64,000 bases of DNA, taken from NCBI GenBank assembly GCA_000004695.1, contig CM000150.2:1664001-1728000 (forward strand), in the 5' to 3' direction. Origin of the DNA: Dictyostelium discoideum (lineage: Eukaryota). The notes under the pieces were generated by a model. The model ran no database searches and had not been told where the DNA came from. It was given only the letters and a program-made list of their open reading frames with translations. This document shows positions 16,932-28,745 of this stretch, in pieces (the first letter of the stretch is position 1; the number at the start of each line of letters is the position of its first letter). A program made the position numbers and the translations under genes.

Positions 16932-18389
<1,458 letters not shown>

Positions 18390-18483
18390 ATAAAATATAT
18401 ATATTGTGCAACAAATTGGTAATAATAAAATATAAAATTTTAATAACATTATTTTATTTTTATTTTTTTAATTTTTTAATTTT

Positions 18484-19033
18484 TTAAATTTGATTAATTA
18501 ATAGCTTTTTCTTTTGTGGTGATAGTACATTTTTTTTTTTTTTTTTAATTATGAATTCCAAACTTTGTATTTTATGAATTGCGATAATTGTACATTTTCT
18601 TTTTATGTGAATTCTTTTTTTGATTTTATTGATTGGTAAACAATCACTTGTAACGGCTAATGGATATGATGATGAGTTGATAGTTTCATTTGTATTTTTG
18701 GAATTCCATTTATTTCCCAAATATTGAAAACTTTTTCTAATGAAAAATTCAAATTCATCAACTTTAATTGATTGATTTTGATTAATTTCTTTTTCTTTTT
18801 TTTCTTTTTCTTGAATTTGTTTTAGTTGATTATCAACCACTAAAATCGCTTTATCATTTATTATATGTTACTGTTGCTGTTGTTGTAAATATTGATATTG
18901 ATCATCAATAATAAATGTTTGTTGATGGTAAAAATTATCTTCAATATCATATTCTAACTTTGGTGTAGGCGGACACTCAATTATAAATGTTGGGTCAATG
19001 AAATCATCGTGTTCCTAAAAAAAAAGATCAAAA

Positions 19034-19065
<32 letters not shown>

Positions 19066-19162
19066 ATTTTTTTTTTTATTTTTTTTTTTATTTTATTTTA
19101 TTTTATTTTCTTACTTTTAAAATTTTATCAAGACTATAGTTGTATGTAAAAACTTGATCCAT
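18484..19162 (-). CDS. Small 2-exon ORF join(19162..19115,19014..18868), 64 aa: MDQVFTYNYSLDKILK|EHDDFIDPTFIIECPPTPKLEYDIEDNFYHQQTFIIDDQYQYLQQQQQ*. A single in-frame TAA separates it from a further 118-codon open frame (18840..18484). Status unclear (small gene plus 3' region, or pseudogene).
   Basis: ATG at 19162, donor AAA|GTAAGA, acceptor ttttag|GAACAC, phase 0. The downstream segment continues in the same frame after the TAA at 18870..18868. The only possible joining intron would be 32 nt, which is too short. Confidence 0.3.
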
Positions 19163-19456
19163 TATTTCTATAATTCTTTTTTTAAGTTTACTTTTTTATC
19201 CTTTTTTGTTTTGATAATTTTTGTTTAAAAATTTTTTTTTTTTTCCATTTCATACAAAGATAAAAGTGATTTTTATATCACTTTAAAGAAAGACTGACAC
19301 TGACACTAGATATTTTTATTTTCACTTTATTTTTTTTTTATTTTTATTTTTATTTTTTTAATCCCATTTTATTTTATTTTATTTTATTTTATTTTTTTTT
19401 TTTTAATCAATCCAATAATCTTCTTTTTTTTTTTTTTTTTCAAACAACAATAACAA

Positions 19457-19506
<50 letters not shown>

Positions 19507-19862
19507 AAATAAATAAAAACAATAAAATTAACAATGGTAGTTTTGTTCCAAAATTATATCACCCACCCCCACCACCAAAAATGTATCTGTTTTTTCAAAT
19601 TACAAAGAGAATTTGTAAAAACTTTTCTAATTTATTTAAATAATTATGGTTATGGTGTGTGAATATTTAAAAAACAAATAATTTTCGTGGGTTTTTTTTT
19701 ATTTTTTTTTATAATATAATTTAATTATTATTTTTTTTGTTTTATTAAATTCATTTATAAATGAATATATAAATAAAAAAATTTTTTTTAAATAACATTA
19801 AACATTAAAACATATATTTTTAGAAAGATAATATCAAAATAAAAAAAAATAAAAAAAAAAAA

Positions 19863-19896
<34 letters not shown>

Positions 19897-19899
<3 letters not shown>

Positions 19900-21943
19900 A
19901 AAAAGATTCATTTACTTTTTTTGTTTATATTCATATTAACAATAATTACAATAACATTTTTTAAAAATTCAAATAAACCAGAATCAATTAAAAATAATAG
20001 AAACAATTACAACAATAACAACAACAACAACAATAATAATAATAATAATAATAATTTTGATAATGTTAATAAAAATACAAATAATAAAATTGTAGTTAAT
20101 CAATTTCAAGATCAAAATAATAATAATAATAAATTTTATAATGATGAAAGATTAAAAAAAAATCATCAAAACAATGGTCAAAATGATAATAATAAAATTC
20201 CACAACATGAAAATTATTTAAAAAAGAAAAGATCACCAAGACCACAACCAACTTTTAAAAAATCAAATAATAATAATGATAATAATAATTTATTAGAAAA
20301 ATTAGAAAATAAAATTCAAATAATAAATAATAATAATTCAATTGAATTTTTATCAATGAATAAAATTAATTGTGAAAATGGTGGAATTGGATTTTCAAGT
20401 AAATGCATTTGTTCTTATGGATTTAATGGTGACAGATGTGAGATTATTGATATAAATAATGCATGTACACAAGTAAAGATGAATATTGAGTATCTCTATA
20501 ACCCAAATTTAGTATCCTCTGATAAATGTATATCAAGTGCACCAAGTATTTGTTGTTGGTCAAAGTTTAGAACCATTTCAAATATTTCTTTAACAAAATT
20601 ACAAGATTCAACTCATTCAGATTTAAATCAAGTTCCACAACATAATGATATAATTAAATCAATTTTAACAAGTTATGGACCATGGACTGAAAATGACAAG
20701 AAAATGATAAGTTATCTAATTAAATCAAATGATAATGATATCACTTATCAATTAAAATATAATACAAATCATTTCATGTCAAAACACGACCAACATGATA
20801 ATCATAAAAAACCAAAATTAGCATTTGTCTTAATGATTCATAAAATTGATTTAGAAGCTTTAAAATTATTATTTGATAATATTTATAAACCAAAACATTA
20901 TTATGTTATTCATAGTAAGTAAATAATGAATGTGATAAACAAACTATTATTAAAAAATTACTAACAAATTAATATATATATAGTTGATAATAATTTTAAA
21001 GATGAAAATTTAATTAATCAATTGAAATCATTTATAAATAAATTATATGAATTAAAAATAAAGAATAATATATTATTAAATTCAAATTATCCAAATAATA
21101 TTGAGATTTTACATACAAGATTCGATGGTGCATGGGGTTCAATTGCTTTAGTTTATAGTGAAATTGCATCATATACAAAGCTATTTGATATGTTAGAACA
21201 TAGACATTCAATAACTGGTAGAAAAGAGAAATGGTCACATGTAATTAATCTCTCAATTAATGATTTTCCAATTAAAACAATTGAAAAATTAGAATATTTC
21301 TTTGCAAGTAATGGTAATATTAAAAGAAATTTCTTAAATGAAGAAGATAAAGAAAAAGAAATTATTAGATATAATGTAAATATTTATTGATTTATTTAAT
21401 TAATTCTATTTTAAATTTTAATTATTAATAAAAATAAATATATATATATATATATAGAAACCATGGGTAGAATGTAAAACAATTGAAGATGGTAAAAGTA
21501 ATATTGTTGGATTTAATTTTCAAAATAATGATGATAATGATGAAAATAGTGGTATTTGTGGATGTTCAGGTATGGAACATACAATGGATAGAAGTAAATA
21601 TAAAGAAGGATCACAATGGCATTTTTTAACATATAAATTTGCAAATTATTTAATTTCAGATTTTAAAGCAATTAAAAGATTATTCTCTATGAAGTTCTCT
21701 TATATTCCAGACGAATCATTCTTTCAATTGGCAAAGAGCGAATCTTATTTTTTCAATGAAACTGATAGTTGGGATTTCTCAAATTATAGATTCATCCCTT
21801 GGTATAATAGTGCAATCGGTTTAAAAGTTGGTTTAGAAGAAGTTGAAAATAATTTTAATAATCAAACTTGGAGTTACTTTACTCGTAAAGTTTATACAAC
21901 TGATGTTAAAAATGCAATAATTGAAAAATATTTAAAAGATTAA
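19897..21943 (+). CDS. Glycosyltransferase family 14 (core-2/I-branching type) with N-terminal signal anchor and an EGF-like domain. 3 exons: join(19897..20914,20984..21375,21458..21943).
   Basis: Signal anchor MKKIHLLFLFIFILTIITITFF. EGF-like CENGGIGFSSKCICSYGFNGDRCE. The GT14 Branch-domain motifs are spread over the 3 exons and rejoin in frame: KLAFVLMIHK...YYVIH|IDNN (exon 1/2, phase 1, GTAAGT...tatatag), ...WGSIALVYSE...WSHVINLSINDFPIKT (exon 2), and GSQWHFLTYKFANY (exon 3, after AAT|GTAAAT...tatatag). Confidence 0.7.
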
Positions 21944-22060
21944 AAAAATAAAAAAATAAAATAAAAATAAATAATTAATAATAATTCCTCCCCCCCCTTT
22001 TTTTTATTGTATTATTATTTATTTATTATTTTAACATAACATTAGTTGAATTTTCATCAG

Positions 22061-22120
22061 CCGGCTTTGGCCCAATGGTAGCGCGATTGACTGTAGTATT
22101 GAAAGTGATCAATCGGTTGC
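22061..22120 (+). pseudogene. Truncated tRNA-Tyr(GUA) pseudo-copy: 5' ~60 nt of the gene with a D-stem mutation (GCCC for GCGC), no T-arm or acceptor 3' strand
   Basis: CCGGCTTTGGCCCAATGGTAGCGCGATTGACTGTAGTATTGAAAGTGATCAATCGGTTGC is near-identical to 22235..22294, including 9 bp of 5' flank (tttcatcag). It then diverges into AT-rich DNA. Confidence 0.6.
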
Positions 22121-22234
22121 AGTATAGAAAATAAAATAAATTTTTTAAAATAGAACTTTTTTTTTTTTTTAATAACATCACTCAATTTGATAAAATAGAA
22201 CCTGGACCGGTAAAAAAAATAAAAATTTCATCAG

Positions 22235-22317
22235 CCGGCTTTGGCGCAATGGTAGCGCGATTGACTGTAGTATTGAAAGTGATCAATCGGTTGCTAGTTC
22301 GAATCTGGCAAGCCGGA
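22235..22317 (+). tRNA. tRNA-Tyr (anticodon GUA) with an 11-nt intron 3' of position 37
   Basis: Cloverleaf: acceptor CCGGCTT/AAGCCGG, D-arm GCGC-AATGGTA-GCGC, anticodon stem ATTGA/TCAAT, loop CTGTAG[intron TATTGAAAGTG]A, variable CGGTT, T-arm GCTAG-TTCGAAT-CTGGC, discriminator A. A T-run follows. Eukaryotic tRNA-Tyr genes universally carry an intron at this position. Confidence 0.85.
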
Positions 22318-22324
22318 CTTTTTA
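22318..22324 (+). terminator. Pol III terminator T-run after tRNA-Tyr
   Basis: cttttta directly after the discriminator base. Confidence 0.5.
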
Positions 22325-22345
22325 TTGATGGAAAATAAGGTCGCA

Positions 22346-22357
22346 GGGTCGATTCGA
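22346..22357 (+). promoter_or_regulatory. External B-box-like element (GGGTCGATTCGA) ~30 bp downstream of tRNA-Tyr
   Basis: Resembles the internal B-box consensus GGTTCGAATCC. Dictyostelium tRNA genes commonly carry such a downstream ex-B copy. Confidence 0.45.
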
Positions 22358-22757
22358 TTTATCAACAATAATTGAAGATAAAATCTTTAAACTTGTCTAT
22401 ATACACACAAATGGAAATGGTTGACCTCCATTTATTCCCAATATTTAAATTATAGAATTATTGATCACGTGTTGGGATACTTTTTTATTTTTTTTTTTTA
22501 CAAAAATAAAAAAATATCTTTAAAATTAATATCATGATTTTTTTTTATTTTTATTTCTCGAAGCCTCATTTTATTTTTAAAATTTTTCTTTTTGGAATAT
22601 GGTTTGAGAATATGGTTTGAGAATAAGAAATATTTTTTATCTTTTTCTAAATTAAAATTATTTTGATTTTTTATTTTTTTTTAAGGAAAAAAAAAAATAT
22701 AAAAAGAGAAATTATGTTTTTTAAATTATAAATAATAAAAATAAATAAATAAATAAA

Positions 22758-23651
22758 ATGTCAATTTTAATTACTGGTAGTACTGGCAAATTTGGTAAAA
22801 ATTCAATAGAATTTTTATTATCAAATGGTGTTGATCCAAAATCAATAATTGCATTGGTTCGTGACGAATCAAAAGGTAAACAATTCCAAGATAAAGGTTT
22901 AAATTTTAGAATTGGTGATTATTCAAATGAAGAATCTTTAGTTAAGGAATTTGATGGTATTGAAAAATTATTATTCATTTCATCAAGTGATATTGAGAAT
23001 AGAATTGATCATCATAATAATGTAATTAAAGCTGCCAAACAAGTAGGTTCAATTAAACACTTGGTTTACACAAGTTTCTTAAGAAAAGAAGAGGTTGAAA
23101 AAAGTGGAAATTCTTCAATTGATTTTGTTGGAAAACCACATATTTTTGCTGAAGAATTGATTGAAAAATCTGGTATCAACTACACAATTCTTCAAAATAT
23201 TCTTTACACTGATTTCTTAACCGAATTCTTTTTTGGTGAAAAGGTTTTAGAAAATGGTATTTTTTTCCCAGCAGGTAATGGTATTGGTAACTATGCAACT
23301 AGAAAGGATATGGCTGAAGCTGCAGTAAATATATTATTGGATGAAAATCAACAAAATCACCTCAATAAAAAGTATATCATTTCAAATGAAGAAAGTTCAT
23401 CATTTGAAGATGCTGCTAAAATTCTCTCTGAAATCAGTGGTAAAACTATTTCATACACAAGTCCAGATGTTGCAACATTTGAAAACACTTTAACTGGATT
23501 TGGTGTCCCTCAAGTTTATATTCAGCTATCAGTTGCATTTGGTTTGGCCATTCAAAATAATGAGTTTAATATCCTTAAAACTGATCTTTCAACATTGTTA
23601 AAAAGAAAACCAACTACCTTAAAACAATTTTTATTTGATACCTATCAATAA
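22758..23651 (+). CDS. NmrA-like / atypical SDR NAD(P)-binding protein (297 aa, single exon)
   Basis: N-terminal Rossmann motif ILITGSTGKFG, ALVRDESKG, and the overall NmrA/YtfG-like layout. Confidence 0.7.
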   Translation: MSILITGSTGKFGKNSIEFLLSNGVDPKSIIALVRDESKGKQFQDKGLNFRIGDYSNEESLVKEFDGIEKLLFISSSDIENRIDHHNNVIKAAKQVGSIKHLVYTSFLRKEEVEKSGNSSIDFVGKPHIFAEELIEKSGINYTILQNILYTDFLTEFFFGEKVLENGIFFPAGNGIGNYATRKDMAEAAVNILLDENQQNHLNKKYIISNEESSSFEDAAKILSEISGKTISYTSPDVATFENTLTGFGVPQVYIQLSVAFGLAIQNNEFNILKTDLSTLLKRKPTTLKQFLFDTYQ

Positions 23652-24221
23652 CAATAAATAAATAACATTTATTATAAAACAAATTAATTTATTTAATTTT
23701 ATTTGTTATATATAATTACCAAAATAGTAACAATTTATTATTTTTTTATAATATTCTCTCTTTCTTTATTTCTATTGATATTGCTATTGCTATTAATTTT
23801 TTAATTTGTAGTTGTTTGTTTAATTAAAATAAGTCATCTGTTGACCTTCTCAACTGTTATTATTTGATAATTTCTTTTCTTGGATTGATACATAATCCTT
23901 CATATGATTAGACTTACTGAATCAATTACCGAATAACCAAACTTTTTTCTAAATTTTTTTTTATTTTATCGTTGTAACTAGGAGTGTTACTTTCACTTTG
24001 GTAGAGGTATCTTTCCAATTTCCAAGATTTCTGTGGTAGTTCTCTTGTCTTTAGGTTTCATAAGTTTAGGCAATCATTGATATAGTTGTTTTGTCTTCTT
24101 TGTGATAGAAATTTAATCAAAAAATCAAAATTTTTTTCAAAAAAAAGGCTCCTATGACAATTTAATCAAAAAATCAAAAAATTTGAGTTGGTTTTACCAA
24201 AAAAAAAAAATATTCAAAAAT

Positions 24222-24293
24222 GGCTCCTTAGCATAGTGGTATTGCGCTTCCCTAGTAAGGAAGAGGTCATGAGTTCGATCCTCATAGGAGCCT
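24222..24293 (+). tRNA. tRNA-Thr (anticodon AGU)
   Basis: Acceptor GGCTCCT/AGGAGCC, D-arm GCAT-AGTGGTA-TTGC, anticodon stem CTTCC/GGAAG with loop CTAGTAA, variable AGGTC, T-arm ATGAG-TTCGATC-CTCAT, discriminator T, then TTTTTTTT. Confidence 0.85.
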
Positions 24294-24301
24294 TTTTTTT
24301 G
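24294..24301 (+). terminator. Pol III terminator (T8) after tRNA-Thr
   Basis: tttttttt immediately 3' of the tRNA. Confidence 0.6.
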
Positions 24302-24320
24302 AAAAAAATTTTAAAGTCGA

Positions 24321-24399: not shown

Positions 24400-27300
24400 A
24401 ATAAATCACTGTTATATCTTCACCGCCACATTCATTCCTCTTAATTTTACCCTTTTTTTGCTCAATAAAGCAAGGGCTATCGTCTTCTATACTTTTCAAC
24501 AATGGCTGGTGATCACTCAACTGAATTACAGTTAAATCATACAGATAACATCACAACCAATACAAATAATACCTCCACAACCTCAACAACAAAAAACAAA
24601 AGTGCAAAAATCGACACACCTGAAAAACAAACCCCAACAAACCAACTCTCACTAAACAAAGGACTTGATAATCAATTAGATATCATTGCACCTCCATCAA
24701 TCACAAGACCACTCTCTTTCTTAGAAAAAAACAATAACACCATCAACATTAAGTGTTACTTTAATCAACCACACATCCTTGAAGAATTAACCTCTAAAGA
24801 TGACACAAGAATCCAACAAATTCACAAAAACATTCACAAACTCTTCGAAGATATACTGTCGCCATCAGCATTTAAAATAATTGGTGCAACTGCCTTCGTA
24901 AATTGCAACGTTGATAAATTAACTTCAATAATCAACCTTCAAAACCAACTTGCACTAAATATAGACAAACTCAATAATGAAATTTCACACAAAAGTGATT
25001 CTTCAAATAATAATAACGGGAAAAACTCATTATCAATGAGCAATCCAACCGATCCAACAATTGTACCACAAAAACCTCTACAATCCCAACCAAACAAACC
25101 AAGTGCACCAACTCCAAATACAATAAATACAAGAAGAAGCAGCAATGCCCTGACTACACAACCAGTCAATACTGGTGCTGCCAAACCTAGTAAGGTATGA
25201 GCTCAAAAATCAACTTTATAACATGGAATTGTAGAGGATTCACTGAAAACCCAAACAATCAACACAATTCCTACCAAAAAGCTGTTGACACACTACAACT
25301 ACTTATATCAAAACTTCCACCTCGTCCAACAATCTCAATACTCACTGAACTCAATTCATCACCATTACAACTTAAACATTATTTTCCCGATCACATCATC
25401 TCTGTCACCAAACGAGGAAATGGTGTAATCATCATTAACCATAACCCAAACACACTCAAACTCAAACACATATCAACAATTGATATTACCAATCAATCCC
25501 AAAACAATAAAGAAATTTCACACAAAAGTGATTCTTCAAATAATAATAACGGGAAAAACTCATTATCAATGAGCAATCCAACCATGGTAGAGCTATTTTA
25601 GCAGACGTTATATTTCCAAATCAATTACCAATTGGTATTCTTGGAATTTACGCACCAGCATCAAATAATACCATCAAAAAGAATTCATATGCAACTTCAC
25701 TACAAACACTTCTCCACAACCACTCAACAAACCCAATACCAAACCAATCCCAACATGTATCTATTATCGCAGGAGATTTCAACTCTATCCACAACGACAA
25801 TTCACTATAAGATGATATTATCCAATCCTACACATACCAACACCATTTAATTGATCAAGGTGAATTTAAAAACACTCCAACTCATACACATGGCAACAGA
25901 TTAGATAGAATATATACTCAATACAATAGAATAGACCCTGAAAATATATATACACAAGTCCACCAAATTCCATCTTCATTATCAGATCATAATCCAACCA
26001 TGAAGCAATCAATATTATCAATCATTTAATAACTAATCACAATAACACATCAATCAATCAATTTACAAACTGGTCAAAAGTAAAATCAAAAATTATTAAA
26101 ACTCTAAAAAACTATCAATATAACAAAGACAAACAAACTCAACGTTCAAAACAAATACTATTAGGAAAAGCAGCAAAATTCAAACATCTTGAAGAACAAT
26201 GCATCGCTGAATACAATATTATATGTAACAAAAACAAATTACATCAAAACCACACAAACATATTAAAAAAACATATAAATGGAGAAATACCTTGCAAGTA
26301 TCTATCAGCAATACTAAACAAAAGATCAAAACATGCAAAAATTGAATCAATCCAATATGGTAACATCATTACATCCGACCCCGACCAAATTGAAAATGCG
26401 TTTGTTGAATTCTACACAAATCTATATAGCTTACAAATATGTTGTCCAATTACTCACCAGCTCATGCCAAACACATGGCCCATCATAAAAAATGAATATT
26501 TGAATGGTTTAGACTCACCATTTATACAAGATGAAGTTGAAGCTGCAATTAAAACCTGTAACCCCAACGAATCACCCGGTCCAGATGGCGTTACAAATGC
26601 TTTCTACTTTAATCATTTAAACCAAGTTAAACCAATTCTCACTACATTATTCTACGATATACTAGAAAATCCTCACCACATCACAACAGAATTCACCGAA
26701 GGTCTTATACACACAATATACAAGAAAGGCAACCCCTTACTCATATCAAATCGTCGTCCCATTACACTTCTAAACACTGATTACAAGATCCTCTCAAAAG
26801 TAATCAATGCACGTCTTCTGAGAATACTTCCTTTCATCATCAACAACAACCAAACTGGTTTCGTACCCCACAGATTCATCATAGACAACATCATCAACAT
26901 CAATGAATAAATCAACTACCTCAAATCTAAAAACCTCCCTGGTATAATCACACTATTTGACTTCTTTAAAGCATTTGATTCTATCTCTCACCTTGTTTTA
27001 ATACTATCAAAAGAACATTAATTCATATTGGTATACCAATAAAATTAATAAATTTAATCCACAAGCTATTATTTGATTCACAAGCAAAAATTTCAATTAA
27101 TGGTAAAACCACCAGAAAATTCGATATTAAAAGAGGTGTAAAACAAGGTGACCCAATCTCAGCCACTTTATTTGTAATTGTAATTGAAATATTAGCAAGA
27201 ACAATAAATGCAGACAATACAATAATTGGATTACCAATTTCATCCAATCCACAAATTAAAATCAAATTTACCCAATTTGCAGACGAATCTACAACATACA

Positions 27301-28745
27301 ACATCAACTACGAACAACAACAATCAATCAAACATTTCGATAATTTATGTGCTAAAACATCATCATCATTAAATTTTGACAAAAGTGCAATAATAGAAAT
27401 CAACCCCCACAAAATCACTGATAAACACATAATAAACAACGTTCCACAATCAAAAAGAATACCAATAACCAAAAAAGATTAATCAGAAAGAGTCCTAGGC
27501 TATTTCTTTAATAATAATGGTTTACATAGGAAATTACCAGAAACAATGAAAACACTGAATAAATCATTAGTACTATGGAAAACTAGTGGCACACCAATAA
27601 CATATTTATCATACCTTGAAGAATTTACAAAAGATGAAGAAATTCAAATTAATAAATTAATCTCATGGTTTATGAATTCCGCAAATTCTGAATCACCAAC
27701 TCTCAATACCAATTCCATTGAAAACAACACATCAACCATCCATTCACGTGCAAAATTACCTTTGATGTGTTATGATAGATCATTAAAACCATTAAAAGAA
27801 GGTGGTTGGGGTATGTGGAATATACAATTACGAAAAGTTGCTCAAAAGAATTGGATATACAACAGATTTTTACAAATGCATATATCTGCAAACAATTCAA
27901 TATACATGATAAGTTGGATGGATCAAATCATCAACAAATCAATCTCTTCTCCATACCTTATAAAAATTAAAAAAGAATGGGAAAACTATGCAACTCAAAT
28001 TGGACATCTAAAAGATAAAGTTAAAATCCTACAACCAATATTAATAAAAAATCAAACCTCTCAAACATTAACCACAAATAATATTCCACTACCACCAACA
28101 CTCAAAGAAATCTACTCGACAATACTCAACAATCACCAATGTAAATCAAAAGACTATATTGGCAAGAAATATTCAGATCTACTTCTTACTTCGCACCAAC
28201 AATTAATACAACTATTATGGAAATACACATACGACCAACTATTTGTCAAAATTCAAAAATTAAAAGATCCAAAAGGCCGTGATACAATGCAAAGATTCCA
28301 TGCTAGATGTCTTCCGATTAATCACCTACACAACAAAGTTTGCCCCATTTGCAACAATGAAATGAATAATGATCCCTATGGTCATTTGTTTTTCAATTGT
28401 CAGCACACAATCAACTTCATAAACCACGACAAATTAAAATATTTTATATATAAAAATTGCAATGGAAACAAAAACTGGTCACTAACAAAAAACCAAACAA
28501 CAAAATTATACACTCATTTATAAACCACAAACAAACAACAAAGCATTTAAACCAGATCCAACTATCATGAATGGGGGGAGGAGACAGGGGACAGGGGACA
28601 GGGGACAGGGGGGGAGATTTGAAGTTTTTTTTTAAATTTTTTAGTCAGTTGCAAATACAAATACATTGGCATATAATAAATAAAACTATTGATTGGAGTG
28701 AAATAAATAATCCAATAAATAAAAGAGAAAAAAAAAAAAATTCCG
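24400..28745 (+). mobile_element. TRE3-like tRNA-gene-targeted non-LTR (LINE) retrotransposon, inserted ~100-200 bp downstream of tRNA-Thr; degenerate copy. Boundaries are approximate.
   Basis: ORF1 24502..25200 (T/N/P-rich, 232 aa). ORF2 starts at 25197 overlapping ORF1 with the APE N-terminus MSSKINFITWNCRGF. The APE C-terminal half is in another frame (IIAGDFNS ... RLDRIY ... SDHNP, ~25590-26040). RT motifs are split over frames: 26464..26910 has PGPDGV ... YKKGNPLLISNRRPITLLNTDYKILSKVINARL, ~26950 has FDFFKAFDSISH, and ~27100-27190 has RGVKQGDPISATLF. The C-terminal CCHC zinc knuckle is CPICNNEMNNDPYGHLFFNCQH (27546..28523). Multiple frameshifts and stops interrupt ORF2. There is an A-run near 28726. 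Confidence 0.65.

Follow-up and report, generated by a model that had tools for sequence, protein, structure and literature searches.

A young, truncated copy of the adjacent tRNA-Tyr(GUA) gene in the AX4 lineage of Dictyostelium discoideum

A truncated tRNA-like element that lies upstream of an intron-containing tRNA-Tyr(GUA) gene in Dictyostelium discoideum is a young, derived copy of that adjacent gene, made in the AX4 lineage. It occupies 22049..22120 (+) of the window, by which we mean the whole 64,000-nt stretch of DNA that was analysed, and 70 of its 72 nt are identical to 22223-22294. Comparison with related loci suggests that it arose as a DNA-level templated insertion from the adjacent gene, a reading to which we would give a probability of about 60%. 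The window maps to D. discoideum chromosome 1, is A+T-rich (15-33% G+C across 2-kb windows) and holds two tRNA genes, the tRNA-Tyr gene at 22235-22317/8 and tRNA-Thr(AGT) at 24222-24293. The site of the tRNA-Tyr gene and its fragment adjoins DDB_G0268206, the open reading frame at 22758-23651, which is 100% identical to the NmrA-like protein of D. discoideum AX4. Upstream of the fragment a Branch/GT14-like gene ends at 21943, and the fragment stands 105 nt past the stop codon of this Branch-family gene and 114 nt ahead of the tRNA-Tyr gene.

The extent of the copy was defined with a repeat finder, which paired 22049-22120 with 22223-22294 over 72 nt at 97% identity and a start-to-start spacing of 174. 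The chance expectation is about 1e-38 in this window of 22% GC. The copy opens with a 12-nt leader (AATTTTCATCAG), continues through exon 1 and the whole intron into exon 2, where position 48 is its last, and differs from the gene at two places: leader position -10 is T (22051) instead of A (22225), and position 12 of the D-stem is C (22072) instead of G (22246). The initial annotation had described a truncated duplicate of the 5' two-thirds of the gene together with 9 bp of 5' flank; the two-thirds stand, but the 9 bp do not, as the copy reaches -12. Within that description the 69-nt core (22052-22120 against 22226-22294) proved exact, its one mismatch being the D-stem substitution at 22072. 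The break before the T-arm was also seen as described, for the copy stops at position 48, directly before the T-stem, and the sequence that follows (AGTATAGAAAAT...) is unrelated to that in the gene (TAGTTCGAATC...), leaving the copy with no T-arm, B box, 3' acceptor strand or terminator. Its A box, TGGCCCAATGG, has remained a match to TRRYNNARYNG, the A-box motif of Dictyostelium (PMC5391098), and the earlier remark that the fragment keeps an A-box region is therefore correct. A tRNA covariance model found no match in 22049-22120 even at E<=10. No further tRNA-Tyr fragment copies were found in the window or in ten related loci, and a search of metagenomes with the 16-mer GTGATCAATCGGTTGC returned at least 120 chance matches, with none in a tRNA-Tyr context among the matches listed.

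The age of the copy follows from its distribution. Of the two NmrA paralogues of D. discoideum, DDB_G0268206 is on chromosome 1, in the window, and DDB_G0292738 on chromosome 6. The chromosome 1-type orthologous loci were retrieved through members of the NmrA protein cluster; a search for orthologues by the upstream Branch-family gene gave distant matches only and zero Dictyostelium loci. Two chromosome 1-type orthologues, L007 (strain ACTFIR) and L131 (D. cf. discoideum), are each flanked by the Branch-family gene on the upstream side and an Erf4-like gene on the downstream side, and L007 is colinear with 17977-22373 of the window (4.4 kb) at about 88% nucleotide identity. L008 (ACTFIW) is likewise of the chromosome 1 type, but its upstream region has been replaced by retroelements. 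L002-L006 and L009 are chromosome 6-type loci, not chromosome 1 orthologues, and in these the gene order is a VIT/VWA gene, NmrA, tRNA-Leu(AAG), often a TRE5 insertion, and then tRNA-Tyr. Because L007 and L131 each have one intact tRNA-Tyr gene and lack the fragment, the copy arose recently and only in the AX4 lineage. Copy and gene have diverged at 2 of 72 positions (2.8%), compared to a flank divergence of about 10% between AX4 and ACTFIR, and shuffle-controlled alignments revealed no significant decayed tRNA remnant in L007.

The two differences can be assigned to one copy each. At leader position -10, T is found in the fragment and in both outgroup genes (L007 and L131) and A in the AX4 gene; the fragment has kept the ancestral state, and the leader of the AX4 gene mutated afterwards. 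Position 12 is G in all five intact genes compared and C in the fragment. Thus 72 nt were copied, and each copy then acquired one substitution. The donor was the neighbouring gene, because the intron TATTGAAAGTG and the leader (...CATCAG) of the fragment are those of the chromosome 1 gene of AX4 and ACTFIR, unlike the leaders of the chromosome 6-type paralogues (...CATCAAA) and their introns (TAATAATGGTG or TAATAATAGTG); a donor on another chromosome was ruled out on the same differences. Also considered was an old, decayed Tyr or Leu pseudogene refreshed by gene conversion, which shuffle-tested alignments did not support: the L007 spacer gave one local alignment to tRNA-Leu whose score was reached by 14 of 500 shuffles, and under composition-aware and decay-aware scoring 666-888 of 1000 shuffles reached the score.

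The donor itself, 22235..22317 (+), is an ordinary, conserved intron-containing tRNA-Tyr(GUA) gene, as the initial annotation had it. Rfam RF00005 matched it over the full model (1-71) with 57.8 bits against a gathering score of 29, and the alignment placed a 14-nt insertion within the anticodon loop. Exon 1 (22235-22270, +) and exon 2 (22282-22317, +) are separated by the 11-nt intron TATTGAAAGTG (22271-22281, +), and excising this intron after position 37, where it had been proposed to lie, gives a 72-nt tRNA that ARAGORN calls as Tyr(gta), drawing a cloverleaf with the loop CTGTAGA. Introns of nuclear tRNAs are found at 37/38, and C1-G72 with A73 are eukaryotic tyrosine identity elements; the acceptor stem of the spliced sequence, CCGGCTT/AAGCCGG followed by A, has precisely these. 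The alternative that ARAGORN offers in its intron mode, an Asn(GTT) with an intron at 34/35, was rejected by the tyrosine identity elements and the canonical intron position. Both internal promoter elements are present on the + strand, an A box TGGCGCAATGG at 22242-22252 that fits TRRYNNARYNG and a B-box core GTTCGAATC at 22297-22305 that fits GTTCRAnYC, and a T5 terminator (+) begins 2 nt beyond the gene, at 22319. Ahead of the mature 5' end the donor has the leader AAATTTCATCAG (22223..22234, +), which holds the conserved Dictyostelium tRNA 5' box TTTCATCA; a TTTCATCA(A/G) box also precedes tRNA-Leu and tRNA-Tyr genes in L002, L003, L007 and L131.

Five orthologous or paralogous Dictyostelium loci, L131, L002 and L003 among them, have identical exons, and the intron sequence differs among paralogous loci. 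L131 has its single intact gene with the intron TAATGTTAGTG, and the gene of L007 equals that of AX4 also in the intron, the proximal flank and the external B-box-like element. In its cloverleaf, anticodon, C1-G72/A73, short intron, A and B boxes and oligo-T the gene resembles other eukaryotic nuclear tRNA-Tyr(GUA) genes and shows nothing unusual against them. The downstream box that had been noted before is borne out as a candidate external B box, GTC-GCAG-GGTCGATTC at 22340-22355 (+), 30 nt past the gene. Here GGTCGATTC fits eight of the nine positions of GTTCRAnYC, the Dictyostelium B-box core consensus (PMC3159450), and GTC lies four bases ahead of it. The element is conserved in the orthologues, as the homologous positions read GGTTCGATTC or GGTTCGAATC, a perfect core, in L131, L002 and L003 and GGGTCGATTC in L007. 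External B boxes are found about 41 bp downstream in 66% of D. discoideum tRNA genes (PMC3159450).

The spacer of 102 nt between fragment and donor (22121..22222, +) bears directly on the kind of event that made the copy. Its larger part, 22141-22222, is homologous to the gene-proximal flank (...GAAC..CGGTAAAAAAAATAAAATTTTCATCA) in L007, in L131 and, more distantly, in L003, and is thus the ancestral 5' flank of the tRNA-Tyr gene. Downstream of the copied piece, 22121-22222 is unrelated to 22295-22396, and just the first 72 of the 174 nt match. Since the spacer is mostly ancestral flank and only 72 of 174 nt are alike, a simple tandem duplication, which would show head-to-tail similarity over the whole unit, is excluded, and the term segmental duplication used earlier does not describe a short copy that was inserted 102 nt upstream into ancestral flank and is confined to the AX4 lineage. 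The end of the spacer, GGTAAAAAAAATAAAAA, had suggested another arrangement, in which the two 72-nt copies would be target-site duplications flanking a poly(A) retroelement truncated at its 5' end. It was ruled out because the A-rich run GGTAAAAAAAATAAAA is gene flank in L007, L131 and L003, which are free of the fragment.

The same flank holds an older retro-insertion scar (22146..22201, -), in which T14 and AATAACATCACTCAATTTGA (22157-22190) lie between two 11-nt target-site duplications TAAAATAGAAC (22146-22156 and 22191-22201). It lies 33-44 nt upstream of the tRNA-Tyr gene, with its poly(A) end distal and its 5' end toward the tRNA; L007 has a diverged version, and L131 has a single, unduplicated target site with no insert. 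Its orientation and position match those of TRE5-type insertions, and TRE5 inserts occupy the homologous site in L003 and L009, yet the 20-nt scar body found no match to the TRE5 3' ends in L003 and L009 or elsewhere. TRE5-A integrates about 47 bp upstream of tRNA genes, within a window of 37-211 bp, and its insertions frequently show 5' truncations and target-site deletions and typically carry extra nucleotides (PMC3159450, PMC5391098). Like TRE5/TRE3 scars, the fragment lies within the 37-211 bp upstream window, with a poly(A) scar and duplication in the same flank, but it has no retroelement sequence, poly(A) or target-site duplication of its own and its orientation is opposite to that of TRE5. 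The tie between the fragment and TRE scars is positional only.

How might a piece of a tRNA gene come to lie in that gene's own flank? On the templated insertion that we favour, 72 bp of the neighbouring tRNA-Tyr gene, from -12 to exon-2 position 48 and with the intron included, would have been copied as DNA and pasted 102 bp upstream, in direct orientation, into the ancestral 5' flank. Synthesis-dependent or microhomology-mediated repair of a break would be possible routes, as would a template switch during replication. A break may have occurred in the zone upstream of tRNA genes that is repeatedly cut by TRE-type endonucleases, and the nearby G+C-rich tRNA-Tyr gene would then have served as template. 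The context can be regarded as break-prone because of the older scar, the TRE5 inserts in L003 and L009 and the element bearing a reverse transcriptase after tRNA-Thr. The copied interval would extend from just downstream of the TFIIIB site to just upstream of the TFIIIC-bound B box, and since it falls between the footprints of these two factors, which we take from what is generally known of Pol III, the ends of the copied piece may perhaps have been set by bound Pol III factors. We infer the repair or template-switch route, the link to retrotransposon breaks and the factor-delimited ends, and the latter two are speculation with position as their only basis.

The outgroups contain 40-60 nt of non-alignable sequence at the insertion site, which suggests that some target sequence was probably replaced. 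No junction microhomology was established, as the outgroups are too diverged in the A+T-rich spacer for the pre-insertion sequence to be rebuilt. Like other templated (filler-DNA) insertions, the fragment is a short copy of nearby sequence at a separate site that forms no tandem repeat, possibly with a small loss of target, but it differs from them in that, as just mentioned, no junction microhomology was established and, at 72 nt, in lying at the long end. The latter counts against a templated insertion, 72 nt being long for the typical polymerase-theta type. Such copies are not a frequent outcome, because none of the 11 further tRNA genes examined in the related loci that were fetched has a partial copy nearby, and searches of the literature gave nothing specific on Dictyostelium tRNA pseudogenes or fragments or on templated insertions at tRNA genes.

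Other origins have to be weighed against this reading. Tandem pairs are common among Dictyostelium tRNA genes, and the fragment could be what remains of a complete second tRNA-Tyr in such a pair after its 3' parts were deleted. The sequence right after the break, AGTATAGAA, weakly recalls the (T)AGTTCGAA of the gene, the T6 run at 22141-22146 is readable as an old terminator, and the paralogous chromosome 6 locus has two tRNA genes, Leu and then Tyr, at comparable spacing. The resemblance beyond the break is not significant, however, as 77 of 500 shuffles reach the score of 22121-22157 against the gene, and identity falls abruptly from 97% to background at 22120/22121. With 22141-22222 being ancestral flank, two separate, precise deletions would be needed, and neither of the two outgroup lineages has a second gene or a significant remnant of one. 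A deletion remnant is thus unlikely, if the best of the other explanations for how the sequence came about. An artefact of assembly, with part of the tRNA gene doubled by a mis-joined or collapsed read, has nothing in its favour beyond the general difficulty of A+T-rich Dictyostelium DNA. It can hardly be entertained when the fragment recurs in an independent D. discoideum assembly (L001, GCA_054883475.1). Over 6.9 kb this assembly departs from the window at 2 mismatches and one 13-nt indel, and the 861 bases (21900-22760) that include both copies are 100% identical. The copies also differ from each other at two positions, and at one of these the ancestral state has been kept.

Improbable also, in our judgement, is a retro-copy, for which the target-primed machinery of a tRNA-gene-targeting TRE element would have inserted the reverse transcript of a 5'-unprocessed, unspliced and 3'-incomplete pre-tRNA-Tyr. 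Leader and intron are exactly the content of a primary transcript, but a copy made from DNA would equally contain both. The start about 12 nt upstream of the mature end is a plausible Pol III start, and the position 114-186 nt upstream of the gene is within the 37-211 bp window of TRE5-A (PMC5391098), while TRE5 insertions run in the other direction. A 31-nt inverted tRNA-Thr copy between 21-nt repeats in the same window does read like a target-primed retro-copy. The tRNA-Tyr fragment, on the other hand, lacks a target-site duplication, and its 3' end at 22120 is not A-rich; reverse transcription would have had to be primed internally or on a nascent RNA without the T-arm, and the junction GGTTGC|AGTATAG misfits priming on the adjacent AGU unless 1 nt was deleted. 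Nor is the fragment a tRNA-derived SINE, although its 5' head is likewise tRNA-related, with an A box, and gives way to A+T-rich sequence. Unlike these elements it lacks a B box, a LINE-related tail, poly(A) and a target-site duplication, holds a leader and an intron, and adjoins its donor, with no extra copies in the window or the fetched loci; a SINE was ruled out on the missing B box, the absence of a duplication at the ends and the absence of a copy in the window or ten related loci.

Whatever its origin, the fragment is in all probability without a function. The B box is the main anchor of TFIIIC. A search for B-box cores found none within the fragment or the spacer; the only ones in the vicinity are those inside tRNA-Tyr and tRNA-Thr and the external one of the latter. 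The nearest to the fragment are those of the intact tRNA-Tyr gene, about 228 nt from the fragment A box, and the optimal distance between A and B boxes is 30-60 bp (PMC5391098). TRE5-A targeting depends on a functional B box and can be used as a proxy for TFIIIC/TFIIIB occupancy (PMC5391098). No retroelement scar is found about 47 bp upstream of the fragment, where the sequence is colinear with D. cf. discoideum. The earlier suggestion that the fragment might recruit TFIIIC or act as a decoy is thus unsupported by the sequence, given the lack of a B-box core in fragment and spacer and of a scar at the expected distance.

A broader functional role, as a TFIIIC/TFIIIB decoy or insulator or as a modulator of the tRNA gene or of the 3' end of the Branch-family gene, would draw on the intact A-box motif and on the placement of the fragment between that stop codon and the tRNA gene, 105 and 114 nt from them. 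We consider such a role very improbable: there is no B box, the fragment is absent from two related lineages in which the tRNA gene and its neighbours are intact, it has already acquired a substitution that breaks the D-stem, and the upstream site where a TRE5 insertion would report TFIIIB occupancy is without a scar (PMC5391098). Because there is no B box, no conservation and a stem-breaking G12->C, we conclude from these sequence features that 22049-22120 is most probably a dead, non-functional tRNA pseudogene fragment. It resembles other truncated eukaryotic tRNA pseudogenes and fragments in being partial, mutated, devoid of essential parts and not conserved between lineages, and differs from them in having its donor 102 nt away in the same orientation, in holding a leader and an intron, and in ending exactly at the T-arm boundary.

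On its own the fragment matters little: it adds another short-lived tRNA pseudogene fragment, next to a tRNA gene already annotated, to a genome that has been studied well. It is nevertheless a cleanly dated, small-scale copy-and-paste event at a Pol III gene, with two outgroups that lack it and one substitution per copy, and it may serve as a natural control for an A box without a B box; no retroelement was attracted to it, which agrees with the need of TRE5-A for a B box. Together with the inverted copy near tRNA-Thr, it gives a hint that templated repair scars accumulate upstream of tRNA genes in Dictyostelium, which could become a read-out of abortive retrotransposition. One might go further and regard both as members of an undescribed class of "tRNA-gene-templated scars" that derive from aborted tRNA-gene-targeted retrotransposition, a proposal that we hold to be doubtful. 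The endonuclease or reverse transcriptase of TRE elements would then copy local Pol III transcripts at TFIIIB-marked sites, or alternatively TRE activity would provoke breaks that are patched from the adjacent gene. Should such a class exist, the ends of the copied pieces would report TFIIIB and TFIIIC footprints.

Two observations were made at the tRNA-Thr gene. Upstream of it, a perfect 31-nt inverted copy of the 3' end and trailer of tRNA-Thr, ending in TTTT, lies between 21-nt direct repeats. The gene is followed on the + strand, at the position of TRE3, by a non-LTR retroelement that is frameshifted and contains a reverse-transcriptase domain.

Upstream of tRNA-Tyr(GUA) (22235-22317, forward strand) the sequence carries a very small insertion scar of poly(A) type (22146-22201). 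It consists of T14 and a further 20 nt, and its target-site duplication, TAAAATAGAAC, is 11 nt long. The scar lies 33-44 nt upstream of the tRNA gene in the orientation of TRE5, one of the retrotransposons that target Dictyostelium tRNA genes. A diverged version of it is also found in ACTFIR, and it is absent in D. cf. discoideum. At the chromosome 6-type paralogous loci, a TRE5-position element is found ~45 bp upstream of tRNA-Tyr (L003, 5876-6551; L009, 5392-5450), the junction of which consists of poly-T (T9 or T24) followed by GAATTGGATAACGC; in L003 the element is bracketed by AAAAACGAAC(TTT) repeats. Because the insertion site of these elements is homologous to TAAAATAGAAC, the target of the AX4 scar, the site upstream of tRNA-Tyr is a recurrent integration hot spot. 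The 20-nt body of the scar differs from the TRE5 3' end of L003 and L009.

A frameshifted non-LTR retroelement on the forward strand (24400-28600; RVT_1 domain at 26464-26910) starts ~100 bp downstream of tRNA-Thr(AGT) (24222-24293), which is the TRE3 position, and is missing or far shorter in the three orthologous chromosome 1-type loci (L007 from ACTFIR, L008 from ACTFIW and L131 from D. cf. discoideum). Upstream of the gene, a 128-nt stretch (23976-24103) matches an internal part of the L009 TRE5-position element at 90% identity.

The region upstream of tRNA-Thr(AGT) further contains an inverted copy of the 3' end of the gene, with the 31 nt of 24127-24157 matching the reverse complement of 24282-24312 perfectly. 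This source, TCATAGGAGCC followed by T8 and GAAAAAAATTTT, comprises the final 11 nt of tRNA-Thr, the terminator and a 12-nt trailer with a TTTT end. A payload of 28 nt (24131-24158) is flanked by 21-nt direct repeats, AATTTAATCAAAAAATCAAAA (24110-24130 and 24159-24179), 42-63 nt upstream of tRNA-Thr. The inverted copy reads like either a read-through Pol III transcript that was retro-copied by target priming, in which case a primer ...CAAAA would pair with the terminal UUUU of the transcript, or the product of snap-back templated repair. No clear equivalent is found in the orthologous loci L007, L008 and L131.

On chromosome 1, the NmrA gene (DDB_G0268206) and the tRNA-Tyr gene next to it (22192-23718) are paralogous to the chromosome 6 DDB_G0292738 locus (NmrA, tRNA-Leu, tRNA-Tyr). 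The permuted gene order, with tRNA-Tyr before NmrA on chromosome 1 and after it on chromosome 6, together with the homologous flanks of tRNA-Tyr at the two loci (compared with L002, L003 and L009), implies duplication via a tandem or circular intermediate. All the loci in which the chromosome 1 copy was found bear the label D. discoideum or D. cf. discoideum. Strain ACTFIW has an additional partial NmrA copy of 120 aa (L008, 7904-8306), which shares 93% identity with window 22856-23143 and is placed between the chromosome 1 NmrA gene and tRNA-Thr.

In every Dictyostelium locus examined, TTTCATCA(A/G) is located immediately 5' of the tRNA-Tyr and tRNA-Leu genes (window 22226-22234; L002 ~5222-5231; L003 ~5756-5765; L131 ~5167-5176). 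This motif, within which Pol III probably starts, looks like a box conserved in the 5' flank of Dictyostelium tRNA genes. The 5' flank of tRNA-Thr has ATATTCAAAAAT in its place.
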